A stretch of 64,000 bases of DNA from Candidatus Adlerbacteria bacterium (GCA_903851045.1 CAINNF010000017.1:34353-98352); one strand, 5' to 3'; shown: positions 37,919 through 55,952, counted from the first letter of the stretch. Notes: generated by a model not told the origin, from the sequence alone. Numbers and translations are program-made.

Positions 37919-40900
37919 ATGAGGATAGAAAGATTTTTCGTATTGCACATCTTGCGGCCCGCGCCAGCGTTTTTTCTCTTTCTTCTACTTTTGTGCGTCC
38001 CCGCATTATCTTTAGCAGGTAGTTATCCACAGTATCCGGCGGGCTCCGTGGTCACGATTGGCGAGTTCGTCTACAACGACGACTACTCACCAACCACCGA
38101 CAACTGCGACGTGACAGTGTATGATCCGACCAACACGAAGGTGGTGTACGCTTCGACCACCGCACGGTCGGATGGATGGCACTCCTATACATTTACTCCA
38201 GCATCTGTCTTGGGTGTATGGTCGTCCAACATCTCCTGTGGTTCGAGCGCGGGGGGCACGCTGGTACGACAAGATGAATCGTTCGTGGTAGTGAGTCCTC
38301 CTGCATTGCAGTCTGATATCCAAACTGCCTCATCTTCGATCGCTGCGGTCGTGAACGCACATACTGATGCTGCGACCGGGAACGTCACCTCAGGTGTGAA
38401 TGCGCACACTGACGTTGCGTCGTCATCTATCGGCACGATGCTGTTGTCGATACCTTTGGCGGTATGGAATATCACTGCCAGCACCTTGACCACGGTCGGC
38501 TCGATCGGTAAGCAGCTTGCGACCAATGTAGACTCGGTACTTTCGGGAATTTCAAGTGGTATCGCACTGGCCGTCAACGGTCACACCGACACGGCGCTCA
38601 ACACCGCCTCATCCTCAATCGCTGCAGTCGTCAACGGCAACACCAACACTGCAACAGCTGGCATCACTTCAGGTGTGAACAGTCACACGGATTCGCAACT
38701 TGCGCTTGCAACCTCGTCGGTTAATGCACACACCGACTCCGCGACTGCGGGCATTACTTCAGGCGTCAATGGTCACACCGACACGGCGCTCAACACGGCC
38801 TCTTCTTCAATCGCTGCGGTCGTCAACGGCAACACGAACACTGCTACAGCTGGCATCACAACTGGCGTGAACGGTCACACGGATTCGCAACTTGCGACCG
38901 CAACCTCTTCGATTGTTGCTGTTGTGAACGGTCATACTGATTCGGCCGCTGCTGGCATTACCACAGCTGTTAATGGGCACACGGACATAGCATCTTCGTC
39001 GATCGCAGCCGTCGTCAATGGTAATACAAATACACAAACGAGTGGCATCGCGTCAGCAGTTAACACTAATACTAACAATATCGTCACTGCCGCATCCTCC
39101 TCGCTTGGTAGCACTCTCGGTTCGATCGCGTCCTCCATCCTCTCGGTGCCGGCGAACGTGTGGTCCTTCACTGGCCGCACGCTCGACTCCTTTGGCTCAA
39201 TCACCGGTGATGTTGCCACCGCCGTCTGGAGTGCAGCCACACGCACCCTCACGGGAGCTTCTCTCACAACGGGTTCGCTCGCGACTCAGTCTGATGTGAA
39301 CACCGCCTCATCCTCAGTCACGACCCTCGTGAACACACACACCGACTCCGCCACTGGCGGTATCGCATCGACAGTCAATGGTCACACCGACACTGCGCTT
39401 AACTCGGCATCCTCTTCAATAGCCGCTGTGGTGAATGGCAACACGAACACTGCGACCGCGGGTATCACGTCTGGCGTCAACGGGCACACCGATACTGCGC
39501 TCAATACCGCATCCTCGTCAATCGCCGCGGTCGTCAACGGCAATACGAACACTGCGACCGCGGGTGTAACTTCAGGGGTGAACTCCCACACGGACACACA
39601 ATTGGCGCTCGCTACGTCGTCGGTCAATTCTCACACCGATACGGCGACCGCGGGTATCACGAGCGCTGTTAATGCGAACACCACGAACATAGTTACTGCG
39701 GCATCATCCTCTCTCGGTTCCACCCTTGGTTCGATTGCATCCTCAATCCTCTCGGTGCCTGCGAACGTCTGGTCCTTCACTGGTCGTACACTCGACTCCT
39801 TTGGCTCGATTACAGGAGATGTGGCGACTGCGGTCTGGGGCGCAGCGACTCGAACACTCACTGGGGCAACTCTCACTACTGGCTCGCTTGCGACTCAGTC
39901 TGACGTAAACAATGCTTCTTCGTCAGTTGCGGCAGGTGTGAATGCACATACAGACTCAGCGACCGGTGGTATTGCGTCCACAGTCAATGGACACACAGAT
40001 ACCGCACTCAATACCGCCTCGTCTTCGATTGCCGCGGTCGTCAACGGCAACACGAACACTCAAACTGCGAGTATTACCTCGGGTGTGAACGGACACACCG
40101 ACTCGCAGCTCGCTACCGCAACCTCCTCGATCGCCGCTGTGGTCAACGGTCATACTGATTCGGCCACTGCTGGCATTACCACAGCTGTTAATGCGCACAC
40201 GGACATAGCCTCTTCCTCGATCGCGGCTGTAGTGAATGGTCACACCGACTCAGCGGCCGGTGGTATCGCTGCAGCGGTCAATACCAACACCACCAACGTC
40301 GTTACTGCCGCATCCTCTTCGCTGGGATTGACGCTCGGTTCTATTGCGTCTTCGATTCTCTCAGTACCTGCGAATGTGTGGGCATACTCGGGACGTACTC
40401 TGACCTCCTTCGGCACGATTACCGGCGACGTTGCGACCGCGGTCTGGGGCGCTGCCTCGCGAACACTCACGGGAGCTACCCTTACCACCGGCTCACTCGC
40501 AACTCAGACTGACGTGAACAATGCTTCGTCCTCGGTCGTGGCTGGAGTGAATGCGCATACGGACTCTGCAACCGGCGGCGTCGCATCAACGGTTAATGGA
40601 CACACAGACACCGCACTCAATGCTGCTTCGTCTTCGATCGCTGCGGTCGTCAACGGCAACACCAACACTGCGACTGCTGGCGTAACGACCGCAATCAACG
40701 CGCACACCGACTCCGCGACCGCAGGTGTCGCTTCGGCAGTCAACACCAACACCACTAACGTCGTCACCGCTGCATCGTCATCGCTCGGCTCGACGCTCGG
40801 TTCGATCGCGTCGGCTATCGTGTCGATGCCAGCGACGATAGTGTCGAGCGTGTGGAGCGCGACGTCTCGCACGCTCACCTCACTGAGTTTGTCATCCCAG

Positions 40901-41854
40901 AGTCCATGGGTGGTATCGCTTTCAAACTCGAGCACTGTTGCAGCGGGCAGTACGTACTATGCGACCGTTACCACAACCTACAATGGTACGTTGACCGACT
41001 CGGCGAATATCCCAACGATTACCATCTATGATCCAAGCAGGAACGTGATAGTCAACGCAGGCACCATGACGCGTACCGGTGTTGGTACCTACCAGTACAC
41101 CTACCTCACCAGCGGCAGCGCGCCGGGCGGCGTATGGGAGACCGATGTCACCGCGAATGTTGCGACCGGTCAGACGCTACCTGGTACGCAGTATTGGAAC
41201 CTCACGACATCTCCCGCGCAGGTCATAGTGAATAGTGTGAGCGCGGTCACCGTGCCTACCATCGGGGCGAACATTACGATCACCAACGAAGGTCTTGGCG
41301 GATATGAATATCACTATGCGTGGTGTGTCGTCGCCGATATCAGTACGCCCTGCGATGGAAGCAGTAACGACGTATTCTACGCGAACGCGGCGAAGTTCAT
41401 AAATCCGGGCGACAGCTTTAACACCACGCTCACTGCCACCGTGCCAACACCCGGTTCGTACTACTTTAAAGTCATCGCATACTTCGGAACCGAAAGTTCC
41501 GGTGCGTCACGTCAGTTTACCGCTACGGCGGGGAGCTCGAATAACGGCGGTTCCGGTGGCTCAGGTAGTTCCGGTGGCGGCAGCTCTGGGGGCGGCGGTT
41601 CGGGTGGTGGCGGAGCTGCTGTGGTGACCGCGGTACCATCGACACCAGCAGGGCAATGCAACGGGGCTGATCTGAATGGTGATCATGTGGTTAACTATAT
41701 CGACTTTTCAGTGCTGCTGTATTTCTGGCATACGCAGCCACCATTTAGGAATCCGTGCGTCGACATCAATCAAGACGGCAAGGTCGACGCACGAGACTTC
41801 TCCATCATGCTTTCCCAGTGGAAGACCGCAGGCACACCGTTTAAAAAGAGATGA
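37919..41854 (+). CDS. 1311-aa secreted fibrous protein with ~2.5 kb of hendecad-type tandem repeats, Gly/Ser linker and C-terminal dockerin domain
   Basis: Signal peptide MRIERFFVLHILRPAPAFFLFLLLLCVPALSLA. About 840 aa of VNGHTDTALNT / ASSSIAAVVNG / NTNTATAGITSG 11-residue units. Linker SSNNGGSGGSGSSGGGSSGGGGSGGGG. Duplicated dockerin segments DLNGDHVVNYIDFSVLLYFW and DINQDGKVDARDFSIMLSQW. Confidence 0.8.
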   Translation: MRIERFFVLHILRPAPAFFLFLLLLCVPALSLAGSYPQYPAGSVVTIGEFVYNDDYSPTTDNCDVTVYDPTNTKVVYASTTARSDGWHSYTFTPASVLGVWSSNISCGSSAGGTLVRQDESFVVVSPPALQSDIQTASSSIAAVVNAHTDAATGNVTSGVNAHTDVASSSIGTMLLSIPLAVWNITASTLTTVGSIGKQLATNVDSVLSGISSGIALAVNGHTDTALNTASSSIAAVVNGNTNTATAGITSGVNSHTDSQLALATSSVNAHTDSATAGITSGVNGHTDTALNTASSSIAAVVNGNTNTATAGITTGVNGHTDSQLATATSSIVAVVNGHTDSAAAGITTAVNGHTDIASSSIAAVVNGNTNTQTSGIASAVNTNTNNIVTAASSSLGSTLGSIASSILSVPANVWSFTGRTLDSFGSITGDVATAVWSAATRTLTGASLTTGSLATQSDVNTASSSVTTLVNTHTDSATGGIASTVNGHTDTALNSASSSIAAVVNGNTNTATAGITSGVNGHTDTALNTASSSIAAVVNGNTNTATAGVTSGVNSHTDTQLALATSSVNSHTDTATAGITSAVNANTTNIVTAASSSLGSTLGSIASSILSVPANVWSFTGRTLDSFGSITGDVATAVWGAATRTLTGATLTTGSLATQSDVNNASSSVAAGVNAHTDSATGGIASTVNGHTDTALNTASSSIAAVVNGNTNTQTASITSGVNGHTDSQLATATSSIAAVVNGHTDSATAGITTAVNAHTDIASSSIAAVVNGHTDSAAGGIAAAVNTNTTNVVTAASSSLGLTLGSIASSILSVPANVWAYSGRTLTSFGTITGDVATAVWGAASRTLTGATLTTGSLATQTDVNNASSSVVAGVNAHTDSATGGVASTVNGHTDTALNAASSSIAAVVNGNTNTATAGVTTAINAHTDSATAGVASAVNTNTTNVVTAASSSLGSTLGSIASAIVSMPATIVSSVWSATSRTLTSLSLSSQSPWVVSLSNSSTVAAGSTYYATVTTTYNGTLTDSANIPTITIYDPSRNVIVNAGTMTRTGVGTYQYTYLTSGSAPGGVWETDVTANVATGQTLPGTQYWNLTTSPAQVIVNSVSAVTVPTIGANITITNEGLGGYEYHYAWCVVADISTPCDGSSNDVFYANAAKFINPGDSFNTTLTATVPTPGSYYFKVIAYFGTESSGASRQFTATAGSSNNGGSGGSGSSGGGSSGGGGSGGGGAAVVTAVPSTPAGQCNGADLNGDHVVNYIDFSVLLYFWHTQPPFRNPCVDINQDGKVDARDFSIMLSQWKTAGTPFKKR
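38320..40870 (+). repeat. near-identical in-frame tandem repeats: 33-nt (11-codon) units nested in a ~600-nt higher-order repeat, 3 full copies plus one partial
   Basis: The motif block ASSSLGSTLGSIASSILSVPANVW...TGSLATQSDVN recurs at ~39.10, 39.70, 40.31 and (truncated) 40.78 kb. The intervening NxHTDxAxxG units are repeated dozens of times. Confidence 0.8.
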
Positions 41855-42744
41855 GACACTACCGAAACATATTTTGGATCATAGCCGTGCTCACCGTACT
41901 CCCAGGTTCGGCTCATGCCGCTACCGACGTATTGACGATAGAGCCACCGATTGGCGTTGTGTCGGTTGGAGATACGGTGCTGGTGCCTGTCTACCTTTCG
42001 ACCTTGCGGAATGTGAACGCGGTGGATGGGGAAGTGAGCGTCATCGGTCCAGTGACTGTCGTCTCGAATGACACGAGCGGCTCGGTGTTGACGCTCTGGC
42101 CACTGCCGCCGTCTCTGAGTGGTAGCGCGATATCCTTCACTGGTGGTGCGGTCACCAGCTTGACCGGGGCGCATCTAAAATTATTCTCTATCGCGGTGAA
42201 GATCACTGGTGCAGGACCCATCACGTTCAAAGTACAACATGGCACCGCCTATCTGGCGGATGGACAAGGGACTCCGCTTTCACTTACGGGTGTTGCGGCA
42301 GGGGTCACGGCGGGTACGGGTGCGTCAGCACGAAACGATCTTGCGATCGAGATACAACATGACACGACTCCACCCGAGCCGTTCACTATCGACTATGGGA
42401 GAGATCCACAGGTGTACGGTGGTAACTATTTCATTAGCTTTGGAGCGGTCGACACGCTGGGTGGCATAGACCACTACGATGTCACCGAAGGGACTCTCCC
42501 ATCGGTGCGCAGCGGTGATACATACGTGCTTCAGCGCCAGGGTCAGGACGAGACGATTACAGTCACCGCATATAACAAAGCCGGCCGTGCCCGCGTATCA
42601 ACCTACACCGTCTCGGTGTCTCGTCCAGCCGGAGGGGTGGAGTGGATGTGGCTCTTGATTATACCACTGCTGTTGTTCGCTGCTGTCTCATACGTACTCT
42701 ATTGTCGAAGTACGAGACGTCGTGTGAAAAAGAGGAAGAGATAA
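41851..42744 (+). CDS. membrane-anchored cohesin-domain protein (297 aa)
   Basis: ATGA overlap with the upstream stop. Signal peptide. Cohesin-like beta-sandwich blocks (VSVGDTVLVPVYLSTLRNVNAVDGEVSV...LTLWP...ISFTGG...ITFKV). C-terminal TM (WMWLLIIPLLLFAAVSYVLY) plus basic stop-transfer tail RRRVKKRKR. Confidence 0.6.
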   Translation: MRHYRNIFWIIAVLTVLPGSAHAATDVLTIEPPIGVVSVGDTVLVPVYLSTLRNVNAVDGEVSVIGPVTVVSNDTSGSVLTLWPLPPSLSGSAISFTGGAVTSLTGAHLKLFSIAVKITGAGPITFKVQHGTAYLADGQGTPLSLTGVAAGVTAGTGASARNDLAIEIQHDTTPPEPFTIDYGRDPQVYGGNYFISFGAVDTLGGIDHYDVTEGTLPSVRSGDTYVLQRQGQDETITVTAYNKAGRARVSTYTVSVSRPAGGVEWMWLLIIPLLLFAAVSYVLYCRSTRRRVKKRKR

Positions 42745-42748
42745 TACT

Positions 42749-44278
42749 ATGTTGTGCACGTCATCTGTCAAACAAGTCACGCGCCTCTCCGTTCGCATGT
42801 TCGTGGTGTCCGTGCTCATGATGCTACTGTGCGGTCCCCACGCAGCGCGCGCAGCCACGGTGTCGTTGACGCCGATGGTGTCGTCGATCTCAGCGGGGAA
42901 CATCGTTACGGTACACGTCATGGTGAACACGCAGGGAGTTGCTATCAACGACGGGAGCGCCACGATCCAGTTCCCGACCGATCTTCTTGAGGTGGTGTCG
43001 GTTTCGAAAAGTTCATCCATTTTCTCGCTCTGGGTCGAAGAGCCAACGTTCTCCAACAGCGCCGGTACGGTGACGTTCGATGGTGGGGTACCGACGCCGG
43101 GGTATCAGGGAGGTAGTGGAGACATGCTCGATATTACCTTTCGCGCAAAAAAGACAGGTGCCGCTTCGATACTGGTTACGAACGTGAACGTGCTCGCCAA
43201 CGATGGACAAGGGACGGACGTATTCAGCGGGTCGAGCAATGACACTATCACCATCACGCCGTCAGTACCAGCCGCGCCGATCCAGACACCTGCACCCATA
43301 GCAAAGCCTGCTGCGACACCGACCGTCATACAGACCACCCCGACCGACACGACGGTGCACATCACTTCCTCGACCCATCCATCACAGACTGCCTGGTATG
43401 CGCAGAACACGGCACAGCTGGGGTTCGACCTACCCCCGAAGACCGCCGCGATCAAATTCTTGGTGAGTCAGGACCAAACGACGGTTCCGACAAAGACATA
43501 CAAGCCTGCGATCACACAAAAGTCGACCGACGCGCTCACCGACGGCACATGGTACGTCCAAGTAAGTGCACTTGCGGGCGGGGTATGGGGTCCGGTGAGC
43601 ACCTATACGCTCAATATCGATACTATGCCGCCTCGGTTGAGTATTACATCGCTCGTCTATTCGTCGGACACCAAGACTGTCACGGTCACCGGCTCAGCAC
43701 AGGACGATACCTCTGGGTTTGGGTCACTGTCGCTGGTGGTCGATGGCGTCGATGCGCGAAGTGACGTGGCGGGACTGTTGACCCAGGGGACGGTCCAGGT
43801 ACCGCTTGATGCGTCTCCGGGGCAGCATGTCGTAAAAGTACGAGCGGTCGATCGAGCGGGGAATTATATGGATTCGCAAGACTTCTACGTCATGGTACCG
43901 GCCGAACCGTACGTGCCCAAGGGCGTAGTGGCGGTCACGACGTGGTATGTCGAGACGCACGGCTCGATGGTACTGGTCGTGTTAGCGCTCTGCATCTCGT
44001 TGTTGTCGTTGATCTTCAATGTCATACTTTGGAACAAACTCCGCATCTACCGAAAACGACCACACTCCGGGGTTGTGCACATGAGAGAGCAGACGAAAGA
44101 GCGGCTTATGGACCTCAAAAAAGATCTTCACAAACAGGCAAAGCTGTACGATAAGACGGGTACCCACAAGGCGACTACGAAGGAAGAGGCTGACTACGCG
44201 AAGAAGATGCAGGCCCATATAGCCGATGTCGAACAATATGTGGACCGCAAGATACAGGACATAACGAAGCGTCCCTGA
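42749..44278 (+). CDS. membrane-anchored cohesin-domain protein with Ig-like spacer and charged cytoplasmic tail (509 aa)
   Basis: Signal peptide. Cohesin-like blocks (ISAGNIVTVHVMVNTQGVAINDGSATIQFPTDLLEVVSVSKSSSIFSLWVEEPTFSNSAGTVTFDGG). Pro/Thr linker, beta-rich middle, TM MVLVVLALCISLLSLIFNVILW, ~90-aa helical cytoplasmic tail. Confidence 0.6.
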   Translation: MLCTSSVKQVTRLSVRMFVVSVLMMLLCGPHAARAATVSLTPMVSSISAGNIVTVHVMVNTQGVAINDGSATIQFPTDLLEVVSVSKSSSIFSLWVEEPTFSNSAGTVTFDGGVPTPGYQGGSGDMLDITFRAKKTGAASILVTNVNVLANDGQGTDVFSGSSNDTITITPSVPAAPIQTPAPIAKPAATPTVIQTTPTDTTVHITSSTHPSQTAWYAQNTAQLGFDLPPKTAAIKFLVSQDQTTVPTKTYKPAITQKSTDALTDGTWYVQVSALAGGVWGPVSTYTLNIDTMPPRLSITSLVYSSDTKTVTVTGSAQDDTSGFGSLSLVVDGVDARSDVAGLLTQGTVQVPLDASPGQHVVKVRAVDRAGNYMDSQDFYVMVPAEPYVPKGVVAVTTWYVETHGSMVLVVLALCISLLSLIFNVILWNKLRIYRKRPHSGVVHMREQTKERLMDLKKDLHKQAKLYDKTGTHKATTKEEADYAKKMQAHIADVEQYVDRKIQDITKRP

Positions 44279-45798: not shown

Positions 45799-46203
45799 TT
45801 AGGGGTTCAAATCAGGAAAGCACACGCCTATGACGGCCTTTGTGAGCGCGCGAAAAACGTCCTTGTCCATAGTTGCAATTTTTACGGTCAATCGTTTGCG
45901 ATCCACGAATCGAATCTGTGATAAGACGGCTACCGCGTCTCTCCCGGATACTGCTCCTACGGAGAAGTAATATTTTCCTTCCTTTGGTCTGGCTGTCAGT
46001 GGAACAATAAGACAAGTGTCGAGATTGAATTTTGATAGTATGACGACAGGTCGAGTAAACAATTCACTTCCACCATCTTGTTCGTAGCCAACATTGGTGC
46101 CAAGTGTGCACCACCACACCTCTCGCTCATGAAAGAGGGCAGTTCCTTTTGTGTTGTTAATTTCCTCTTTCTTCGTATGCCATCGCCAAAAGTCTTTTTT
46201 CAT
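45799..46203 (-). CDS. MazF/PemK-family endoribonuclease toxin, no adjacent antitoxin found
   Basis: FHEREVWWCTLGTNVGYEQDGGSELFTRPVVILS and LDTCLIVPLTARPK parallel MazF GDLIWVDFDPTKGSEQAGHRPAVVLS...GMCLCVPCTTQSK. Start taken at ATG (complement 46201-46203). A GTG 18 nt upstream is also possible. AT-richer patch. Confidence 0.6.
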   Translation of the reverse strand: MKKDFWRWHTKKEEINNTKGTALFHEREVWWCTLGTNVGYEQDGGSELFTRPVVILSKFNLDTCLIVPLTARPKEGKYYFSVGAVSGRDAVAVLSQIRFVDRKRLTVKIATMDKDVFRALTKAVIGVCFPDLNP

Positions 46204-46255
46204 TTTGGGAGAGCTTACCACCAGTCAGAATTTTATCAACGGCCACCTATTTAGA

Positions 46256-46831
46256 ATGGATGCATGTGCTACAATGCCGGAAATGACCCCAAAAGACGCA
46301 GTATTTATTACGGGGAATCAGAAGAAGGCGGAGTATCTCTCTCGCTACTTGGGGCATTCGGTTGAGCACAGCAAGGTTGAGTTGGAGGAGATACAGTCGC
46401 TTGATCTACAGGAAGTTGTCCGGCACAAGGTACGCCAGGCGTATGCGCAGGTGGGGCGGCCGGTGTTGGTGGAGGATGTGTCGCTGGAGTTCGTGGCACT
46501 TGGGCGATTGCCGGGGACGTTCATTCGCTGGTTCCAAGAAGAGTTGTCGCCAGCGGAATTATGTAGGCTGCTTGATGGCAAGGACCGTTCTGCAATCGCC
46601 CGCTGCATGTTCGGCTACTATGATGGCATGGCAGAGCACTATTTCGAAGGTGAGTTGCGCGGGCGTGTTGCCGAAAAACCTGCTGGCACAGATGGCTTTG
46701 GTTGGGACTCCATTTTTATCCCCGAAGGGTACGATGTCACTCGAGCTGAACTGAGCGAAGATGATGATCGGTTAACCTACCTTACGCTCAAACCGTTCAC
46801 GCAGATACGAACTTTTCTCTTGGGGGAATAG
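46256..46831 (+). CDS. non-canonical purine NTP pyrophosphatase (Ham1/RdgB/ITPase family)
   Basis: AVFITGNQKKAEYL N-terminal signature and FGWDSIFIP C-terminal motif. True start may be ATG 46274 or 46283. Confidence 0.75.
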   Translation: MDACATMPEMTPKDAVFITGNQKKAEYLSRYLGHSVEHSKVELEEIQSLDLQEVVRHKVRQAYAQVGRPVLVEDVSLEFVALGRLPGTFIRWFQEELSPAELCRLLDGKDRSAIARCMFGYYDGMAEHYFEGELRGRVAEKPAGTDGFGWDSIFIPEGYDVTRAELSEDDDRLTYLTLKPFTQIRTFLLGE

Positions 46832-47175: not shown

Positions 47176-47859
47176 ATGGAAACCGGTTTTCTGGTAGCGA
47201 ACCCACTGTCGGTGGGCATACCCTCGGTCTTGTTCTTCTTGCTGTTCGTGGGGGCAAGTCTGCTCCCGCTGGCTGTCGCGGGGTTGGCGGGATATTTCGA
47301 CGCTTGGGGGGCGCACCCTCCTCGGACGTGGGCGCAGGAGGTTGCAGAGTGGGTAAGTCCTTCGTTGACGACCGTGTTCCTGTGCCTGCCAGCGCTCTTG
47401 TGGCGTCTGCAGTGCGACTGGACGCGCACGCCCGTGTCGCCTGAGTGGCAAGCAGCATGGTTCCTCGTGCTGTTCGTGGCAGCAACCGGTGTACTCGCGG
47501 TCGCGAGATTGATTCGCAAGCGTAATGGAACAGAGGGTGTGATGGATACGATTGCTGATATAGACTTTCAGCTTGATGGTGTGCCGTCAGACTTGGCGGC
47601 ACTGGTGCGGACCAAGAAGAGTCTGCGCACTGCTCTTATCGAGATGGGAGCGGCCGGGGTCCGGCTGGTAGAGCTTAAGGCTGGGTGGAGCAACCCCGAC
47701 CTTGAGATCCGCAAGGCGCAAGCGTTCGAGGTGCAGGTGCTGGGTCGACCACTTACCAGCGACACGACATTCGGCCCGTTCGGCAAGTGTTTCGTGCAAT
47801 TGGGCAAAGGCGAGTGGGCGCTCATGAACGCACACAGTCCAGGCTTCGAAACCGCGTAA
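47176..47859 (+). CDS. membrane protein with 4 TM helices and a C-terminal soluble domain (227 aa)
   Basis: ATG 47176. Followed by an intrinsic terminator. No motif recognised. Confidence 0.5.
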   Translation: METGFLVANPLSVGIPSVLFFLLFVGASLLPLAVAGLAGYFDAWGAHPPRTWAQEVAEWVSPSLTTVFLCLPALLWRLQCDWTRTPVSPEWQAAWFLVLFVAATGVLAVARLIRKRNGTEGVMDTIADIDFQLDGVPSDLAALVRTKKSLRTALIEMGAAGVRLVELKAGWSNPDLEIRKAQAFEVQVLGRPLTSDTTFGPFGKCFVQLGKGEWALMNAHSPGFETA

Positions 47860-47874
47860 TATATAACCGACACA

Positions 47875-47905
47875 GACGATCACCCTCCAGTGGTCGTCTT
47901 TTCTT
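47875..47905 (+). terminator. rho-independent terminator
   Basis: gacgatcac / gtggtcgtc stem (one mismatch) followed by ttttctt. Confidence 0.5.
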
Positions 47906-47933: not shown

Positions 47934-49505
47934 TTACATATCCCCGCCGGTGTAGGAGAGACTAAAGCTTTTGTTGATGAGCGGGAAGTCGGGCACCACG
48001 TTGCCTTTTCCAGCGTAGCCGACGCACGGCCAGTTAAGGAGCGACGGGTCGCGCATATCGACGCGTGAGATTGAGCCGGTCGAGTCGGTGGCGACGAGAC
48101 ACACCATGTCACCACGCCAGCCTTCGGTGATCGAAACGGCGAAGGCGTTCTTCGGTAGTACGGGTGGCTGTAGTTTCGCGATACTATCGCTGGGGAGCGC
48201 TTCGAGCGCCTGGAGGATCAGGTCGATGGACGTATAGACCTCTTCGATGCGTACCGTGAAGCGGGCTTCGACATCGCCTTCTTGTGCGCCCGCCATGGTG
48301 AAGCGAAGCGACTCGTACGCTGCGTACGGGTACTGCGCGCGTGCGTCGTTCTGTATGCCTACGGCTCGACCGGCCACACCGGTACACCCATGGTCTCGCG
48401 CGATCTTCGGGTCGAGGATGCCGGTATCCTTCAGACGATTGATGAGCGAGCTGGAGTCCGCGGCTATCGCCATAACTTCGGCGAAGTCGGTGCGCAGCTC
48501 CACAAGCTCTTCGCTCAACGTGTGTGCAGCCTCTTTCGAAAGATCCTTGGTGACACCGCCGATCGTGTTCACGCCCCGGAGGAACCGACTACCGGTCAGG
48601 CGGTCACAGATACGCATGACACGCTCGCGCAAGCGTGCGCCTTGCGCACCTCCGAAGTTGAACCCGGTGTCGGTCATGATTGCCCCGATGTCACTGAAGT
48701 GATTCGCCAATCGTTCGAGCTCGGAGTAGACGACGCGTAGGTGTTTTGCTCGGGCGGGTACGACGATGTTCATGAGCGTCTCGACCGCCTGGCAGAATGC
48801 GAGCGAATAGGTAAAGGACGAATCGCCGGCGATGCGCTCGGAGAGCTGCACCTTCTTCTCCAAAGGCAGCGTCTCGAACAATTTTTCGGTCCCTTTGTGC
48901 GAGTAACCGAGTCTTGGTTCGAGGTTCAGTATCTCTTCGCCCGCAAGGTGGAAGCGGAAGTGCCCTGGCTCGATGATACCCGCGTGGACCGGTCCTACAG
49001 GCAGTTCGTAGATACCTTCTTCTCCGCCGATATGTGCGAATGAGAATGGTGTATCGGTGTCGGTCATCGGTGGGCGCTCGTTCCAAAGGAACTTCTTTCT
49101 TAGTGGGTATGTTCCCTTTGGCCAGTTGTCATGCAGGATGATCGAGCGCGGGTGCGGGTGTCCCGTTGGCGAGAGACCGAAGAGCGAGTTGATCTTTCGC
49201 TCATACAAGCTCGCCTCGTGGATGGAAGGTGTAAGCGAGGGGAACTCGCTCACGGTCTGGAGCGATAAGGTGATGAACTTGTGCGCCTGGGGGATACCGA
49301 ACACATACAGTATGCGATAGAGGCCGCCGTCCCGTGTCTCGTCGAGCGCGGTGATCATCTTCAGCGGCAATCGGTGTGCACGATACAGACCGTTCGCCAA
49401 GGCCACGAGGTCCGCAGCTTTGACCGGGACGATGATGCAGTTGCCCGAGATGCTGACCTCGGTATGCTCTGGCAGATATTTTTGTATAAGATGTTTGGTG
49501 TCCAT
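47934..49505 (-). CDS. fused NuoC-NuoD-like subunit (HycE/EhrL-like) lacking NiFe-binding cysteines
   Basis: VGPVHAGIIEPGHFRF and GYSHKGTEKL NuoD/large-subunit signatures. The ~140-aa N-terminus resembles the NuoC/30-kDa fold. No RxCGxC or DPCxxC NiFe ligands. Confidence 0.75.
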   Translation of the reverse strand: MDTKHLIQKYLPEHTEVSISGNCIIVPVKAADLVALANGLYRAHRLPLKMITALDETRDGGLYRILYVFGIPQAHKFITLSLQTVSEFPSLTPSIHEASLYERKINSLFGLSPTGHPHPRSIILHDNWPKGTYPLRKKFLWNERPPMTDTDTPFSFAHIGGEEGIYELPVGPVHAGIIEPGHFRFHLAGEEILNLEPRLGYSHKGTEKLFETLPLEKKVQLSERIAGDSSFTYSLAFCQAVETLMNIVVPARAKHLRVVYSELERLANHFSDIGAIMTDTGFNFGGAQGARLRERVMRICDRLTGSRFLRGVNTIGGVTKDLSKEAAHTLSEELVELRTDFAEVMAIAADSSSLINRLKDTGILDPKIARDHGCTGVAGRAVGIQNDARAQYPYAAYESLRFTMAGAQEGDVEARFTVRIEEVYTSIDLILQALEALPSDSIAKLQPPVLPKNAFAVSITEGWRGDMVCLVATDSTGSISRVDMRDPSLLNWPCVGYAGKGNVVPDFPLINKSFSLSYTGGDM

Positions 49506-49511
49506 AGTTTT

Positions 49512-50954
49512 TTATATCGAGCTTGCTGCTGCGTGTAGTAACGTACGTATCTCTTCCGGCACGTACAATCCGAGGAGGATAAGGATGATGAGCAGGGTGA
49601 GCGACGGCACGACCGTGAGATAGTTCGATTCTCCTGGCGCCACTTCCGACGGTGCATCACCGTATGCGAGTCCGGTCACGTGTCGCAGGAAGCCGACGAA
49701 CACCAGTGCTAACCCGAACACGGCCGCAGCGGCGACGTATGGATGTAGAGCGAACCCGGCGATTATGATATACAGCTCGGTCATAAAGATACCGAACGGC
49801 GGTAACCCGACAACCGCGAGAAACGCAGTAAAGAACAGTATCGTTGTGGTCGGGAGCGTGGTAAGCAGCCCGCGCACGTTCTCTATCTTGGTCGAGCTGT
49901 ATTTGAGGAAGATATTGCCGGCACAAAAGAAGAGCGACGACTTCGCGAGCGAGTGGTAGATCATGTGCAGGAGTGCAGCGAAAGTCCCGACCCCACCGAA
50001 GCCGAACCCCAGCACCATAATACCCGCATGTTCGATACTGGAGTATGCCAGGAGGCGCTTGTAGTTCCATTGCGTAAAGATGATGAGGCCCGCGACGAGG
50101 ATGGTGAAGAGTCCGAAGCCTATGAGAAGGTACTGAGTGAAGTTCGAGTGGAGCGCGAGATCGGTCACTCCCTTAAAGCGCAGGAGCGCCAAGAGCGCGA
50201 CGTTGAGCAGTGCACCCGAGAATAGGGCGACGACCGGTGTCGGTGCCTTACTGTACGCGTCCGGTTTCCAGGTGTGCATGGGAGCTAGCCCGATCTTGGT
50301 GCCGTAGCCGATCAGCACCATAACGAACCCGATCTTTGCCACGAGCGGGTCTATGGCGCCTGCACTCGCTCGGAGCATGTCCCAGGTAACGAACTCGGCA
50401 CCGCCTGCGTCACGAAACGCGGTGAAGTAGAGAAGCGTGCCCAAGAACCCAAGCAGCAGCCCGACCGAGTTGATGATGAGATACTTCCATGCGGCCTCCA
50501 TCGCTGAGCGTTTGTTATAGAAGCTGACCAAGAAGGCGGTCGCGAGCGTCGTCGCTTCGACCGCGATCCACAACAAAATAGGTGCGGTCGTCACGACCGC
50601 GAAGAACATCGCGAATAGGAAAAGATGCACAAGCACGAAGTATTCGCGCACGCGGCGGAAGCCGATGATACCCTTCGACACCTCCTCCCGCAGGTATCCG
50701 ACCGAATAGAGCGCGGTGAAGAACCCGATGATAGCGACCGTACAGATGACAATCGCGCCGAACGCGTCGATCGAGAACGCGCCATTGTACGTTTGTGTCG
50801 CGATCGATGCACGCTGTGCGAGCACCAGGGCCGCGCCCAGTTCGAGTCCTGTCGTGAGGATCGCAACTATGTCGAGCACCAACGACTTCCGCGCGATGAC
50901 GGACAATAGTGCGGCGAGTAATGGGGTCGAAAGAAGGATAAGTAGTGTGGTCAT
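49512..50954 (-). CDS. NuoN/NuoM/MrpD-like proton-pumping antiporter subunit
   Basis: 14-TM protein with WKPDAY...IEHAGIM-type blocks (KIGLAPMHTWKPDAYSKAPTPVVALFSGALL, LLAYSSIEHAGIMVLGFG). Confidence 0.8.
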   Translation of the reverse strand: MTTLLILLSTPLLAALLSVIARKSLVLDIVAILTTGLELGAALVLAQRASIATQTYNGAFSIDAFGAIVICTVAIIGFFTALYSVGYLREEVSKGIIGFRRVREYFVLVHLFLFAMFFAVVTTAPILLWIAVEATTLATAFLVSFYNKRSAMEAAWKYLIINSVGLLLGFLGTLLYFTAFRDAGGAEFVTWDMLRASAGAIDPLVAKIGFVMVLIGYGTKIGLAPMHTWKPDAYSKAPTPVVALFSGALLNVALLALLRFKGVTDLALHSNFTQYLLIGFGLFTILVAGLIIFTQWNYKRLLAYSSIEHAGIMVLGFGFGGVGTFAALLHMIYHSLAKSSLFFCAGNIFLKYSSTKIENVRGLLTTLPTTTILFFTAFLAVVGLPPFGIFMTELYIIIAGFALHPYVAAAAVFGLALVFVGFLRHVTGLAYGDAPSEVAPGESNYLTVVPSLTLLIILILLGLYVPEEIRTLLHAAASSI

Positions 50955-51610
50955 AGTGTTGTATCAGAAAGATTTTTCATCAAGGTGACGTCGAGCGAGC
51001 CGAACTGTCGATACAGCATCGAGATGAAGACGGTCGCGATAGCGACCCATACCAGGATGTCGAAGGTGATACCGAGCTCTAGTGCCGGACTTTGTTCGAG
51101 TCCGGTGAAGAGTGCGAACGCGACGATGCTGTTCTCGACCGAGAGGATGCCGAGCATCTGCGAGAGTGCGCCTTTCTTGTTGACGAGCAGGAAGAGCGAG
51201 ATGAAGAATGATGCTAGTGAAAGGAGCACGAGCGTCGGACTTTCGGGACTAAGGTTCGCGAGCGGCGCGAAGTAGTGGCTAAAGCTCAGTGCCACGATGA
51301 GCGCGAGCACCAGCAAGGTTTCGGGGCTACTCAGGTAGGTGGTGCTCGAGAAACGGAGCTGATTGCGGCGCACAAGACGCGCGAGGAAGTATGGCGCTAG
51401 GATGACCTTCACCGCAGCGGTGACCACGATGGCGATGATCGCGATCGTGGAGAAATCGCCGGCACCGGTAAGCAGTATCGCGATGGCGCCCGACTGGAGC
51501 GCATACAGCGAAATGGCGGTCCGATTCTTCTTCACGAGGTGTTGTAATACGCTCGACATGAACACGATGACGCCGAGGATGAGGATCAGTTGTGGTGCGA
51601 TGAGTGACAT
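50951..51610 (-). CDS. HyfE/EhrC-like small membrane subunit
   Basis: Start re-placed at ATG (complement 51608-51610), MSLIAPQLILILGVIVF. About 220 aa with 6-7 TM helices. The track N-terminal extension overlaps the upstream gene and is spurious. Confidence 0.55.
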   Translation of the reverse strand: MSLIAPQLILILGVIVFMSSVLQHLVKKNRTAISLYALQSGAIAILLTGAGDFSTIAIIAIVVTAAVKVILAPYFLARLVRRNQLRFSSTTYLSSPETLLVLALIVALSFSHYFAPLANLSPESPTLVLLSLASFFISLFLLVNKKGALSQMLGILSVENSIVAFALFTGLEQSPALELGITFDILVWVAIATVFISMLYRQFGSLDVTLMKNLSDTTL

Positions 51611-51615
51611 ACGGT

Positions 51616-52542
51616 TTAGATGATGAGTCCGATAGCGATGATCCCGAGCAGGCAGGAGGTAAAGAGGAGGTCGGGCAATCGGAAGATGCGTAGTTTCGAG
51701 ATGCTCGACTCGAGCGTTGCGATACACAGACACAGAAGCGACACCTTCGCGACGAGGATGATAAGACCGACGACTATGGCACCGAGCGACAAGGTGTGGG
51801 CGAGTCCCCAAGGGAAGAATAAGGTGGCACCGAGCGTAAGGAAGAGCAGATACTTGTTCGCCGCGGACCACTCCATGAGTGCGAGACGCTTGCCGGAGTA
51901 TTCGAGGATCATCGCTTCGTGGACCATCGTGAGTTCAAGGTGGGTCGCCGGGTTGTCGAACGGATATCGGGCGGTCTCGGACAAGAGCGCGATAGCGAAC
52001 GCGAGCAAAGCTATCGCCACTGGGGCGATGCTCGAGAAGGGAAGCGACCGCATGGTCGTGGCGACGCTTGAAAGGTCGGTGGTGCCGCTGAGCAACACCA
52101 AGGTGAGGAGCGAAAGGATGAGCCCACCTTCGGTAAAGGCGGCGAGCATCATCTCGCGGCTGGAACCGAACCCGCCGAAGGCACTGCCAGTGTCGAGCCC
52201 TGCGAGCGCAAGCCAAAAGGTGCCGAGTGCGAAGAGGTAGATGACGACCAAAAAGTCGCCCACCGGTGATGCCGATAGTGCACTGGAGACGATGGGAATG
52301 CATGCGCCGATGGCGAGCGTCACACCAAAGGTCACGAACGGTGCCATACGGAAGATCCACGATGCATCCTCGCTGATGACCTCGTCCTTGTGGAACAGTT
52401 TATAGAGGTCGCGGTACGGCTGGAAGATGCTCGCTCCTTTGCGGTTCTGGAACTCAGCCTTGATCTTGCGGGTCAGACCGATGAACACCGGCGAGAGGAC
52501 CGGGATGAACAGCAGTTGTAGTATCCAAAGGGTGATGGTCAT
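51616..52542 (-). CDS. NuoH/HycD-like membrane subunit
   Basis: MTITLWILQLLFIPVLSPVFIGLTRKIKAEFQNRKGASIFQPYRDLYKLF is the hallmark NuoH N-terminus. 308 aa. Confidence 0.8.
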   Translation of the reverse strand: MTITLWILQLLFIPVLSPVFIGLTRKIKAEFQNRKGASIFQPYRDLYKLFHKDEVISEDASWIFRMAPFVTFGVTLAIGACIPIVSSALSASPVGDFLVVIYLFALGTFWLALAGLDTGSAFGGFGSSREMMLAAFTEGGLILSLLTLVLLSGTTDLSSVATTMRSLPFSSIAPVAIALLAFAIALLSETARYPFDNPATHLELTMVHEAMILEYSGKRLALMEWSAANKYLLFLTLGATLFFPWGLAHTLSLGAIVVGLIILVAKVSLLCLCIATLESSISKLRIFRLPDLLFTSCLLGIIAIGLII

Positions 52543-52545
52543 ACG

Positions 52546-54585
52546 TTATAGCGATATAAGCACTAACAGCGCCACGAGCGCAAGCAATATATAGAGGATG
52601 TACGCATTGATGTTACCATTTTGCATGAGTCGCACCTCTCGTGAGAGCCAGGACAGTCCGCCCGACATGCGCACGTAAAAGTTGGTGTAGATGTCCGGTA
52701 CGCCAAAGTGGACCTTGCTCGATTTGGGGAAGTATCGTAGCGCTGCGTCATGATACTCGACCTCGGTCTGGCGGGTCGGTCGCAGAACCCCGCGCATGAC
52801 GATAATGATCGAGTGCGAGAACCCGGTCGCCGTTATCTCCATGCGGCGGGTGAGCGCGGTGCCGCAGTCCCAGGTGAGGTCGATGACGCTCTTTTGTTTG
52901 CGCGAAGCGACTTCGGTCAGTGCCCATGCGGCCACGAGTCCAAGCACCACGATACTCAGCAGTAGTGGCATCGAAAGAACGGCGAACCCGTCACGCACGG
53001 AGGCGGCGGGTAGCGAGAAGGTCCCCATCGCTCGTACTCCTTCGAAACGGGCCGTCGTACCGGCGATCGTGGCGAGTACGTTCGAGATCGCACCAGCGCC
53101 AAAGCCGACCACGACCGTCAAGAGCGCCAGTGTCGCCATGCTTGCTTTCATCAGCAGCGAGTCTTCGCGTGCGTACACGACCGCGTCGGAGCGTGGGCGT
53201 GCGAGGAAGGCGGCACCGAACGCTTTGACGAAACAAGCAGCCGCAAGACCGCTGGTGAACGCGAGCGACACGATTGACAGCACGAACAAGAACTTCATCG
53301 GTGAGGCGAGAGACACACCCGCGAACATTCCCTGGAAGGTGAGCCACTCGCTGAAGAATCCGTTGAACGGCGGTAGCCCCGATATCGCCATGGAGCCGAT
53401 CAGGAAACAAGCGGCCGTCACCGGCATGTAGCGGATCAATCCGCCGTATTTTTCGATATTGCGAGTATGCATCTGTGACACGGTCGCACCTGCGGAAAGG
53501 AAGAGAAGCGCTTTGAATATCGCATGGTTGAGCGTGTGAAAGAGCGCCGCCATGAGTCCGAGCATCGCGAGTTCGGGCTGGTGGTAGGAGGTGAAGATGA
53601 GCGCGCTGCCCATGCCGAGGAGGATGATGCCGATGTTCTCGATCGAGTGGTACGCGAGCAGTCGCTTGAAGTCATGCTCCGTGAGCGCGTAGAGCACGCC
53701 CAAGAGCGAGGAGGTCGCGCCGAGCGCGAGGATCATGACGCCCCACCACACCGGCCCCGGTGGCAGAATGTCGAAGTACATACGCATCAGCATGTAGATG
53801 CCAGTCTTGATCATGACGCCCGACATGAGCGCCGAAACCTGGCTCGGTGCCGCAGGGTGCGCGCTTGGCAGCCAGATATGCAGCGGCACGATACCCGCCT
53901 TGATGCCAAACCCGATGAGCGATGTGAGAAAGATGATGCTCGCGAGCGTCGGCGAGATCGCGGCACTCCCAAGGTGCATGTTAGTGAAGTCCTGCGCCCC
54001 GGTCGCCTGGTAGAGGAGTAGGAACGAGAGCAGAATGAACGCCGTACCCGTGTGCGTCATGATGAAATAGAGGAACCCTGCGCGGATGTTCTCCTTGTTC
54101 CTGTGTTCGAACGAGACGAGGAAATAGGAGGTGAGCGCCATGATCTCCCATACGATAAGGAAGAGCGTGATCGTGTGGGCGGTCACCACCGCCAGGGTCC
54201 CAAGCACGAAGAAGTTATAGAAAAAGCCGAGCAGACCGATGTTGTAGTGGCCGAAGAGGTGTCGGACGTATCCTATGGCGTAGAGGGAACACAGGAACGC
54301 GATAAGCGAAACGACGGCCATAAAGAACGCCGACAAAAAATCGAGATGGAACGAGAGCTGCAAGAGTGGGAACGAGGTCGGGATCGTGTATGTCGGTGTC
54401 GAGCCCGACATGAGTACCGTCGTCGCGCACAGAAAGGCAACCAACGATCCGAGCGCCGCAAAGCTATTGCCCCACCAGTTCGCCACCACGTCGTCGTGCA
54501 TCCATGCAAGCGAGCCGAAAGCTCCTACCATGAAGAGGATGCACATACTGAAGAAACCGGATTGTGAGAGTAGGAAGGTTGCCAT
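52546..54585 (-). CDS. NuoL/HyfB/MrpA-like antiporter subunit
   Basis: 679 aa, ~16 TM helices, with LLAYHSIENIGIILLGMG and GIVPLHIWLPSAHPAAPSQVSALMSG blocks. Confidence 0.8.
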   Translation of the reverse strand: MATFLLSQSGFFSMCILFMVGAFGSLAWMHDDVVANWWGNSFAALGSLVAFLCATTVLMSGSTPTYTIPTSFPLLQLSFHLDFLSAFFMAVVSLIAFLCSLYAIGYVRHLFGHYNIGLLGFFYNFFVLGTLAVVTAHTITLFLIVWEIMALTSYFLVSFEHRNKENIRAGFLYFIMTHTGTAFILLSFLLLYQATGAQDFTNMHLGSAAISPTLASIIFLTSLIGFGIKAGIVPLHIWLPSAHPAAPSQVSALMSGVMIKTGIYMLMRMYFDILPPGPVWWGVMILALGATSSLLGVLYALTEHDFKRLLAYHSIENIGIILLGMGSALIFTSYHQPELAMLGLMAALFHTLNHAIFKALLFLSAGATVSQMHTRNIEKYGGLIRYMPVTAACFLIGSMAISGLPPFNGFFSEWLTFQGMFAGVSLASPMKFLFVLSIVSLAFTSGLAAACFVKAFGAAFLARPRSDAVVYAREDSLLMKASMATLALLTVVVGFGAGAISNVLATIAGTTARFEGVRAMGTFSLPAASVRDGFAVLSMPLLLSIVVLGLVAAWALTEVASRKQKSVIDLTWDCGTALTRRMEITATGFSHSIIIVMRGVLRPTRQTEVEYHDAALRYFPKSSKVHFGVPDIYTNFYVRMSGGLSWLSREVRLMQNGNINAYILYILLALVALLVLISL

Positions 54586-54588
54586 ACG

Positions 54589-55140
54589 TTATGCGTGTTC
54601 GCGCAAGCGCGGTAAGCCGTTTCGTTCGATATCGGAAAGTATGCCGAGCAGCGATGAAAGGATCACCTCCGGTGTCGGCGGGTCGCCGGGGATGGTGTAG
54701 TCGACCGGGATGACCCCCGACGCGCCGTCGCACACCGCGTACGAACCTTTGAATATACCGCCGTCGATGGCGTCATCGCCGAGCGCGACCACGATCTTGG
54801 GGTCAGGGGTCGCGTTGTAGGACTTTTTGAGCGCTTCGGCCATGTTGCGGCTGACAGGACCGGTCACGATGAGCATGTCTGCATGCCGAGGCGAGGCGAC
54901 GATATGGACACCGAAACGTTCGACGTCATAGTACGCGTTGCCGAGCGCGATCAGCTCTTGTTCGCAGGCGTTGGTGGAACCGGCGGTCACCACCCGGATA
55001 GCCAGCGAGCCGCTAAAAAGGGAGCCGACCTTCTCTCGCAATGCCTCGCCGACCGCAAAAAACTCAGCGTTCTGGGGCTGAGGTGCGAGAAGTGACACGG
55101 ATTGCTGAGCAGATACTATCTTTGAGAAAAGCCTAAGCAT
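54589..55140 (-). CDS. NuoB-like (small-subunit-like) protein with Fe-S ligand cysteines lost
   Basis: YDVERFGVHIVASPRHADMLIVTGPVS and VIPVDYTIPGDPPTPE match the NuoB core, but the GCC, SC and PGC cysteines are replaced (STNAC, DDAIDGG, PGDPP). Confidence 0.75.
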   Translation of the reverse strand: MLRLFSKIVSAQQSVSLLAPQPQNAEFFAVGEALREKVGSLFSGSLAIRVVTAGSTNACEQELIALGNAYYDVERFGVHIVASPRHADMLIVTGPVSRNMAEALKKSYNATPDPKIVVALGDDAIDGGIFKGSYAVCDGASGVIPVDYTIPGDPPTPEVILSSLLGILSDIERNGLPRLREHA

Positions 55141-55343
55141 ACGGGTGTATACGGGCGTCCTATCAGAAATTCATTATGAAATGGATTGGTGAAATCGGCG
55201 TCCTGTGTGTCGCAACTGATGAAGGATACTACAAGCCACGAGCTCAGGCAAGGCGTACTATGAACAGCCTTTCTGGGTAAAAAAAGTCCTACCGAGGGTG
55301 AGTCGGTAGGACCGTAGGGCCGAGCCATTGTTACAGGCGACAG

Positions 55344-55952
55344 TTAGGCGGCGAGTTCTCCGTACAACTCGGGAAGTCGCTCGGGGTGGTGTCTTTGCAT
55401 CCAGGCAAAGAATTTTTGTCGGTTTAGAAAATAGCTTGCGAAGCGTCTTTTGGTCCGATGCCCAAGATAGTCGATGTGTACGAGGCAGCGCGCGTCGCAG
55501 TGGGGTATCTCTTCCCGGAGCCGCTCCTTCGCCTGTACGTGCAGAATAAGAACATCCAACACGCTCAGGTTGTGTTCGTTCGCAATCGCACAAGGGAAGT
55601 GCGCAAAACTCAAGACGTGTGGGGTTTGTTTGAAACCCAGCGCGTTTTCGATGTCCTGCAGGAGTGTTAGGTCGTGATGCAGAGCCACCCCCTTCCGGTG
55701 TGTCCTTGCGAACGGTGAGTCGCGGGCGAGAACCAGTGCGCCACCATGTTTGGTTAATGGATGCACGTTCCTCCCACAGGCACAGGTCGCATGCTCGTAT
55801 CCGTCGCCGAACCGATGCCCGTCTGCGCACAGTACTGCGACTACGATGTCTTGCTTGATCTCGCCGATATCGACATGTTCGAAGACGCCCTCCTCATGAA
55901 GCGACCGAAGCAACTGGTAGTCAGCTCCGGTAATAGTGCTTGGCCCCTGCAT
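55344..55952 (-). CDS. hypothetical His/Cys-rich protein (202 aa) upstream of the complex-I-like cluster
   Basis: Longest ORF in the interval. LCADGHRFGDGYEHATCACGRNVHPL cluster suggests metal binding. No confident family. Confidence 0.35.
   Translation of the reverse strand: MQGPSTITGADYQLLRSLHEEGVFEHVDIGEIKQDIVVAVLCADGHRFGDGYEHATCACGRNVHPLTKHGGALVLARDSPFARTHRKGVALHHDLTLLQDIENALGFKQTPHVLSFAHFPCAIANEHNLSVLDVLILHVQAKERLREEIPHCDARCLVHIDYLGHRTKRRFASYFLNRQKFFAWMQRHHPERLPELYGELAA

Follow-up and report, generated by a model that had tools for sequence, protein, structure and literature searches.

A cofactor-depleted Ehr complex of Patescibacteria and its carbonic-anhydrase-like neighbour in a Candidatus Adlerbacteria genome

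Introduction

Energy-converting-hydrogenase-related, or Ech-related, (Ehr) complexes have been described by Coppi and by Marreiros et al. (2013), as cited in PMC6349859, PMC7894505 and PMC4758237. Their subunits, EhrA-D, EhrL and EhrS, were named in Geobacter, where they increase on formate (PMC7894505), and an association with formate dehydrogenase (the FDH-Ehr complex) has been proposed (PMC6349859). The role of Ehr has nonetheless repeatedly been called unknown (PMC10284858; bioRxiv 10.1101/765248; PMC6349859). In the Candidate Phyla Radiation (CPR; Patescibacteria), Jaffe et al. (2020) reported a monophyletic Ehr clade without metal-binding cysteines, considering the large subunit only, and the text of that paper is silent on ligand loss in the small subunit and on any ATP synthase, antiporter or carbonic anhydrase context (PMC7304191). 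Here, we analyse an Ehr operon and an adjacent His/Cys-rich open reading frame (ORF) of 202 amino acids (aa) in a 64,000-nucleotide (nt) stretch from Candidatus Adlerbacteria bacterium (GCA_903851045.1, CAINNF010000017.1:34353-98352), referred to below as the window, with positions counted from its first letter.

A second point of reference is DAB (DabA/DabB), in which a beta-carbonic-anhydrase-like protein driven by the proton-motive force sits on a NuoL-like subunit (PMC13144422; bioRxiv 10.64898/2026.05.01.722082). No link between Ehr and carbonic anhydrase (CA) was found in the literature searched.

Results and discussion

A complete CPR-type Ehr operon

Seven co-directional minus-strand ORFs occupy window 47934-55952. 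The preliminary description of this region, made from the sequence, had placed them at the same coordinates and called six of them NuoB-, NuoL-, NuoH-, HyfE-, NuoN- and fused NuoC-NuoD-like; all six match these families strongly. They are packed into window 47934-55140 in the order EhrS-EhrA-EhrB-EhrC-EhrD-EhrL, with gaps of 3-6 nt or overlaps of 4 nt at the gene boundaries, and therefore form an operon. EhrS (54589..55140), the NuoB/HycG/MbhJ-like small subunit, matches PF01058 (NuoB) at 1.9e-24. It is followed by EhrA (52546..54585), a HyfB/HycC/NuoL-like antiporter-like subunit of 679 aa (hydrogenase-4 subunit B, NF005086, 8.6e-194), the NuoH/HyfC-like EhrB (51616..52542; PF00146, NuoH, 6.5e-46), the HyfE-like EhrC (50951..51610; HyfE, NF008556, 2.3e-14), the HyfF/NuoN-like antiporter-like subunit EhrD (49512..50954; HyfF, NF005044, 2.5e-121) and EhrL (47934..49505), a fused NuoC-NuoD or HycE-like large subunit matching PF00329 and PF00346. 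The EhrC ORF of 306 aa extends to 51871, and its start is most likely Met88 (window 51610) rather than the GTG at 51871, which is disfavoured because it would overlap the NuoH-like gene by 256 nt. Judged by gene content, the six genes are predicted to encode a complete, intact CPR-type Ehr complex.

The NuoL-, NuoH-, HyfE-, NuoN/M-, large- and small-subunit-like genes that characterize Ehr all lie in this one cluster, and the large subunit lacks both CxxC NiFe motifs. The operon resembles the Ehr of Geobacter in its six subunit types, in the missing NiFe cysteines and in having no NuoEFG/NuoI-type module. Pfam searches with the 42 longer ORFs of the window, though not with every shorter one, detected no gene for NuoI/HycF, NuoE/F/G or Hyp proteins; the earlier remark that electron-input subunits are absent thus holds for these 42. 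With the CPR Ehr clade (PMC7304191), the operon shares the CPR genomic context and a large subunit without metal-binding cysteines, and it almost certainly belongs to that clade. The Ehr label had been proposed in the preliminary description on the basis of the six subunit types, the lack of NiFe ligands and electron-input subunits, and a degenerate small subunit. It is correct, yet it was already published for CPR, and the literature still describes Ehr, as that description did, as a complex of unknown function (PMC10284858; bioRxiv 10.1101/765248).

The best sequence matches are to Escherichia coli formate hydrogenlyase/hydrogenase-4 (HycE, 3.8e-77; HycC, 1.1e-72; HycG, 5.1e-27), and HycE is likewise a NuoC-NuoD fusion. 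Unlike those complexes (HycE/G/C/D; HyfB, C, E, F, G, I), however, this one has no NiFe site and no Fe-S cluster, and it is accompanied neither by ferredoxin-like subunits of the HycF/HyfH or HycB/HyfA kind nor by a formate dehydrogenase. The Mrp Na+/H+ antiporter resembles it in having MrpA/D-like antiporter subunits and a NuoK/MrpC-like subunit and in needing no redox cofactor. The subunit composition differs from the MrpA-G set, which has no NuoB/D/H homologues: NuoH-, NuoB- and NuoCD-like subunits are present here and MrpE/F/G are absent.

Loss of the cofactor sites

EhrS was aligned residue by residue to MbhJ and HycG, and EhrL to HycE and Thermus thermophilus Nqo4, all with solved structures. 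In EhrS, GSCNGC is replaced by GSTNAC, GAC by GDD and PGCPP by PGDPP, which places T56, C59, D122 and D153 at the former [4Fe-4S] ligand positions. The preliminary description had all four Fe-S cysteines of the NuoB-like protein lost; three of them are, but the second (C59) is retained. Its claim that the NuoD-like protein lacks both NiFe motifs is borne out by the alignment of EhrL to HycE, in which RVCGIC has become RIAGDS and DPCYSC has become SLSYTG, so that all four NiFe cysteines are lost. No cysteine occupies these positions in any of 66 family members, whether of CPR or non-CPR type. The quinone-site residues His38 and Tyr87 of T. thermophilus Nqo4 align with Ile and Gly in EhrL, respectively.

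Neither the L1 (RxCGxC) and L2 (DPCxxC) cysteines of the large subunit nor the four proximal [4Fe-4S] cysteine ligands of the small subunit that mark group 4 [NiFe]-hydrogenases are therefore in place. The same is true of features of respiratory complex I/NDH-1, namely the N2 ligands of NuoB, the quinone-site Tyr and His of NuoD and a NuoI-like ORF in the operon. No recognizable site for NiFe, a [4Fe-4S] cluster or quinone is present in the operon proteins. Given that ferredoxin-like and NADH-input subunits are also missing, the complex can therefore be neither a hydrogenase nor a quinone reductase.

Gene maps of 80 loci (designated by L numbers) separate two types of Ehr built from the same six families, 64 loci being CPR-type by the rule used, a few incomplete ones included, and 16 being non-CPR. 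The order is S-A-B-C-D-L in the CPR type, as in the window, versus A-B-C-D-L-S in the non-CPR type. The non-CPR loci come from Proteobacteria, Nitrospirae, Acidobacteria, Bacteroidota, Verrucomicrobia and metagenome-assembled genomes (MAGs) of methanogens or Methanoperedens; one of them (L064) is from a cultured isolate, Oricola nitratireducens. Their small subunits (L062-L083) keep three of the four cluster cysteines in the pattern C-C-[D/E/A/S]-C and may still hold an unusual Fe-S cluster. CPR-type small subunits instead have T/D/S, C/E/A, D and D at these positions (TCDD, DCDD, SEDD and similar), with no cysteine or one, and 28 of 61 such sequences have Glu, Ala, Pro or Val even in place of that one. 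The window operon belongs to this fully cofactor-free type of Ehr. EhrS from the window shares 49-60% identity with its counterparts in A-B-C-D-L-S loci of Nitrospirae, Proteobacteria and Archaea.

These data bear on whether the complex could be a redox-driven pump, with a donor or acceptor module from elsewhere, such as a formate dehydrogenase or the 202-aa protein, docking on EhrL/EhrS. Descent from group-4 hydrogenases, with E. coli HycE as the best PDB match (3.8e-77), would fit such a pump, as would the C-C-x-C cysteines of non-CPR small subunits, the increase of Geobacter Ehr subunits on formate (PMC7894505) and the proposed FDH-Ehr complex (PMC6349859). We nevertheless consider it improbable for the CPR type, in which EhrS has at most one of the four cysteines, itself often replaced, and there is no NuoI/HycF subunit and hence no electron path to the interface. 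The quinone-site Tyr and His are likewise absent, no redox gene is a conserved neighbour in the 64 CPR-type loci, and the 202-aa ORF is beta-CA-like (see below) rather than an Fe-S or flavin protein.

Conservation of the cofactor-free complex

Homologues of EhrS number in the thousands. The closest 120 are 60-86% identical and, where named, mostly from CPR/Patescibacteria; a scan with one genome per species found this type of small subunit in at least 595 species. The mean column identity of EhrS is 60% across 45 aligned sequences. Conservation in this set extends to the replacements for the cysteines, with D122 and D153 at 90% or more and position 56 as T or D. Across CPR-type EhrS, the alignments place conserved Asp, Glu, Thr or Ser at the positions of the lost cysteines. 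In EhrL, 75 positions are at least 95% identical. The membrane subunits are similarly constrained: in the fetched loci, identity is complete or at least 97% at EhrA E147, K229, H236, K260, K358 and E413 and at EhrC K68 and E159; of the EhrD residues E133, K220, H227 and K338, three are invariant and none falls below 98% in 66 sequences; and EhrB has many invariant Glu/Asp residues. EhrA aligns motif for motif with HycC (1.1e-72) and MbhH. These patterns indicate that all six Ehr proteins are under strong purifying selection and that the canonical ion-translocation residues of the membrane arm are intact and conserved.

The loss of every catalytic metal ligand might in itself suggest a decaying, non-functional remnant of a hydrogenase operon. 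Such a remnant would not be expected to consist of six intact, tightly spaced ORFs, with the same six genes in hundreds of species at 50-86% identity, invariant functional residues and conserved replacements for the lost cysteines. Conservation effectively refutes this explanation already, and we regard it as extremely improbable. In our view, the Ehr complex is instead likely to be a redox-independent translocator of protons or other cations, a prediction drawn from the combination of absent cofactor sites and preserved translocation residues.

The 202-aa neighbour is related to beta-carbonic anhydrases

The seventh ORF (55344..55952, minus strand), referred to here as CA-like, has no match in Pfam or NCBIfam. 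A word-indexed search yielded two relatives and a word-indexed profile search 7 proteins; the exhaustive HMMER search was the informative one and revealed a family of at least 328 clusters at 50% identity. Only C42, D44, H118 and C121 are invariant in 80 aligned members, with G70, G71, P120, A124 and Y174 nearly so. The four invariant residues correspond to the Zn-ligand pattern of beta-CAs, CxD...HxxC(G), here with H-x-P-C. The second shell is altered: the consensus is C-x-D-G-[D/H]-[Q/R], in which the canonical Arg at Asp+2 is absent, Asp+2 being D or H and R or Q standing at Asp+3, and H64, H159, D50, D161 and Y174 are additionally conserved.

Pro_CA (PF00484) is the Pfam model matched by most members, yet weakly (5/80, best E 0.0056), and PF20393 (Pro_CA_2) is matched by 1/80, so that the family lies below the gathering thresholds of both. 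Its profile matches beta-CAs in PDB, with HxPCG aligned on HYGCGG; the match to 1ddz reaches 7.7e-6 over two CA domains, each domain alone being marginal (i-E ~0.4-0.5). The AlphaFold (AF2) model of the 202-aa protein has a pLDDT of 94.2 and a pTM of 0.91, and the top 50 PDB matches found for it by Foldseek are all beta-CAs (probability 0.93-1.0), with modest TM-scores of 0.32-0.55. Comparison with PF20393 proteins by hhalign gave 95.7% probability and an E value of 1.1e-8, with both ligand pairs in register (CxDxR/HxxC). A 4-sequence Pro_CA_2 profile run against PDB returned spurious repeat-protein matches, and beta-CAs appeared only at E 0.17-0.3.

The CA-like family thus shares with beta-CAs and Pro_CA_2 the fold and the four Zn-ligand positions, but not the Asp-Arg dyad (CxDxR). 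We propose that it is a new family of beta-CA-like, predicted Zn proteins, distantly homologous to PF20393 and with no Pfam model of its own. The suggestion in the preliminary description that this ORF could be the missing redox partner of the complex is not supported, in view of its beta-CA ligand set, PDB profile matches, fold and hhalign match to PF20393, together with a hairpin that separates it from the operon. By ligands, fold and profile matches, it is not an Fe-S or flavin protein.

Ehr, ATP synthase and CA-like genes recur in the same neighbourhoods

A CA-like or Pro_CA_2 gene directly adjoins the operon in 7 CPR-type loci, in several different arrangements. The CA-like gene lies upstream on the same strand in the window, L001, L025, L027 and L044, and downstream in convergent orientation in L008 and L052. 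In L038, a tandem-duplicated Pro_CA_2 protein is encoded directly after EhrL on the same strand (L038:17349-18287), the first copy having lost the ligands and the second reading CLDFR...HHMDCG. A convergent Pro_CA_2-atpC pair is found in L004. In L018, a CPR MAG, Ehr sits inside the ATP synthase operon: atpB-E-F-A-G, EhrS-A-B-C-D-L and atpD-atpC, then the CA-like gene, run on the same strand (L018:5542-19868), with Ehr between atpG and atpD. All CA-like copies adjoining Ehr loci keep the four ligands.

A naive null model that assumes two target genes in a genome of 1 Mb predicts at most 0.2 cases in which CA-like or Pro_CA_2 directly adjoins Ehr, versus 7 observed, although this model ignores shared ancestry; another count under a naive null was 8 observed versus 1.1 expected. 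F1Fo ATP synthase genes lie within the flanks of 12 CPR-type loci, versus 1.0 expected. These genes directly adjoin EhrS in L015, L016, L032 and L039. The slot after atpC is filled by Ehr in these four loci, by CA-like in L018 and by Pro_CA_2 in L004, L085, L086 and L090, and in the last three Pro_CA_2 is the final gene of the ATP synthase operon. An NhaP-type Na+/H+ exchanger gene, a DedA gene or both lie directly upstream of EhrS in 11 loci, and an NhaP gene is also found upstream of CA-like in L089. In L040, L046, L050, L053, L057 and L058, an NhaP-type exchanger of ~710 aa with a long cytoplasmic tail and DedA are encoded on the same strand, ~3 kb upstream of EhrS; the MAGs concerned are labelled Bdellovibrionales or Moranbacteria and are probably CPR by gene content.

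The two CA families are also linked to each other: each of the four independent long CA-like loci has a PF20393 gene tail-to-tail with CA-like. Paired loci are L085:10001-11081, L086, L087, L088:10001-11085, L089:10001-11150 and L090:1837-2886, with a CA-like protein of 190 aa and a Pro_CA_2 protein of 140-150 aa. Because beta-CAs are obligate dimers, CA-like and Pro_CA_2 might form a heterodimer. No universal seventh partner gene emerged: when the ORFs of the 80 loci and of the window were clustered, the six Ehr families alone were universal, and the extra clusters were alternative-frame artefacts.

A possible coupling to CO2/bicarbonate interconversion

CPR bacteria are, as a group, fermentative and generally have no respiratory chains. 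A redox-independent complex would exchange energy only with a pre-existing ion gradient, which in these bacteria would be made by the F1Fo ATPase. Tentatively, and at less than an even chance, we propose that the complex works with beta-CA-like proteins, the 202-aa neighbour here and PF20393 proteins elsewhere, and that proton translocation by the membrane arm is coupled to the reaction CO2 + H2O <-> HCO3- + H+, which would proceed on the cytoplasmic arm or close to it. Protons would then enter, or be coupled, at the acidic and re-purposed interface between EhrS and EhrL. As a whole, the system would act as a pH-stat or energy-coupled carbonic anhydrase, comparable to DabAB and to CupA on NDH-1MS. 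Ligand loss, conservation, the absence of an extra partner, the beta-CA-like neighbour, the gene neighbourhood and the DAB precedent together suggest such a role.

The likeness to DAB and NDH-1MS (CupA) lies in a beta-CA-like Zn protein (Cys-Asp-His-Cys) encoded beside complex-I-type antiporter-like subunits and in the proposed principle, by which CO2 hydration is coupled to the translocation of protons. In contrast to DAB, the CA-like protein is soluble and of ~200 aa; it has no Pfam match to the DabA family (DUF2309-type) and belongs to a different, much smaller one. The partner here would be a six-subunit complex with NuoB/D/H-like parts, and the link is not universal. We treat the resemblance as a functional analogy only.

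Several observations weigh against this proposal. DabA retains the Asp-Arg dyad (PMC13144422), but in the CA-like family this dyad is missing from its canonical register, and CPR cells would have no evident use for accumulated bicarbonate. A terminator-like hairpin (55313-55285, minus strand; 11-bp stem with 6 GC pairs, then T7) starts 31 nt after the CA-like stop codon, with ~140 nt more to EhrS, and strong hairpins separate the two genes also in L001, L044, L025 and L027; because of this hairpin, the CA-like gene is probably a transcription unit of its own and not co-transcribed with EhrS. A CA-like or Pro_CA_2 gene is present within the fetched flanks in no more than 8 of the 80 loci, and 56 of the 64 CPR-type loci have no CA-like gene there. 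The window is furthermore syntenic with L088 (fused rpoBC, dnaG, rpoD, CA-like, PD-(D/E)XK nuclease, DsbA, RNase H, HisRS and TruB), where CA-like occupies the same place without Ehr and a Pro_CA_2 gene stands where the window has the Ehr operon; the adjacency in the window may thus partly reflect the operon insertion site. Finally, the enrichment was calculated without regard to shared ancestry, and the association between Ehr and CA-like could be indirect, both gene sets merely lying near ATP synthase.

Much of this would also be expected of a plain secondary antiporter for cations and protons, similar to Mrp, or of a valve or leak for protons, in which EhrS/EhrL serves as a purely structural or regulatory cap. 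CA-like would then be a separate housekeeping enzyme, its nearness reflecting a common neighbourhood for ion and pH homeostasis rather than a physical complex. The antiporter residues are invariant or nearly so, NhaP-type exchanger and DedA genes are found immediately before EhrS in 11 loci, ATP synthase is linked in 12, the hairpin separates CA-like from EhrS, and most loci have no CA-like gene. Yet the complex has no MrpE/F/G-type subunits, and its hydrophilic subunits rank with the best-conserved ones (EhrS at 60%, EhrL with its 75 positions), beyond what a passive cap would need. The c-subunits of the linked ATP synthases show no Na+-binding motif (AEA or TEA around the carboxylate, no helix-1 Gln), so that there is no evident need for Na+/H+ conversion, and the adjacency of CA-like or Pro_CA_2 recurs in different arrangements. 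On balance, we consider a plain antiporter or valve only slightly less probable than the CO2/bicarbonate coupling proposed above. A role in Na+ coupling or Na+/H+ conversion is unsupported, given these c-subunits.

Other features of the window

Between the convergent EhrL gene and a gene for a 227-aa membrane protein (47176-47859, plus strand), the hairpin scan found a second terminator-like hairpin (47874..47899, plus strand). The membrane protein was rejected as part of the system: its gene is convergent with EhrL, and it has no Pfam match and no homologue in the other 90 loci. A MazF/PemK-like toxin ORF (45799-46221, minus strand) and a Ham1 (ITPase) gene (46151-46831, plus strand) lie between rpoD and the Ehr region, in a part of the window that differs from L088. 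RpoB and RpoC are fused in a single ORF of 2280 aa (22459-29301, plus strand); the fused rpoBC of L088 encodes 2296 aa. At 37919-44278 (plus strand), two uncharacterized ORFs, one with a weak DUF7743 match, follow the gene for a 1311-aa protein that carries a dockerin type I domain at its C terminus. Compared with L088, the three form an insertion between dnaG and rpoD, and they probably encode cell-surface proteins. One ORF of 298 aa (5876-6772, plus strand) joins a NusB domain to a NUDIX hydrolase domain. Scans of the window for tRNAs and Rfam families returned nothing.

Conclusions

Compared with the literature searched, three results are new: small subunits of the CPR type have lost their Fe-S ligands, retaining at most one cysteine, and carry conserved acidic residues instead; the neighbour can be assigned to a new beta-CA-like family; and Ehr, ATP synthase, CA-like and NhaP genes recur in the same neighbourhoods. 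Ehr complexes are widespread, with at least 595 species carrying this type of small subunit alone, and have had no assigned function for ~20 years. Those of CPR are an extreme case, having no cofactor site and yet being highly conserved, so that their task has to be one that depends on coupling machinery of the complex-I type but not on electrons. The links to the ATP synthase operon, to two CA-like families and to Na+/H+ exchangers make this function experimentally addressable, and they bear on how Ehr-carrying CPR bacteria manage membrane potential, pH and inorganic carbon. The full picture, in which CPR bacteria stripped the complex of its redox cofactors and combined it with beta-CA-like proteins and the F1Fo ATPase into a gradient-coupled CO2/bicarbonate converter, is speculative, and we would put its chances as low. 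If true, it would add a vectorial carbonic anhydrase of independent origin, the third besides Cup/NDH-1MS and DAB, give an Ehr complex an assigned function for the first time and provide a natural example of complex-I coupling machinery running without electron transfer.

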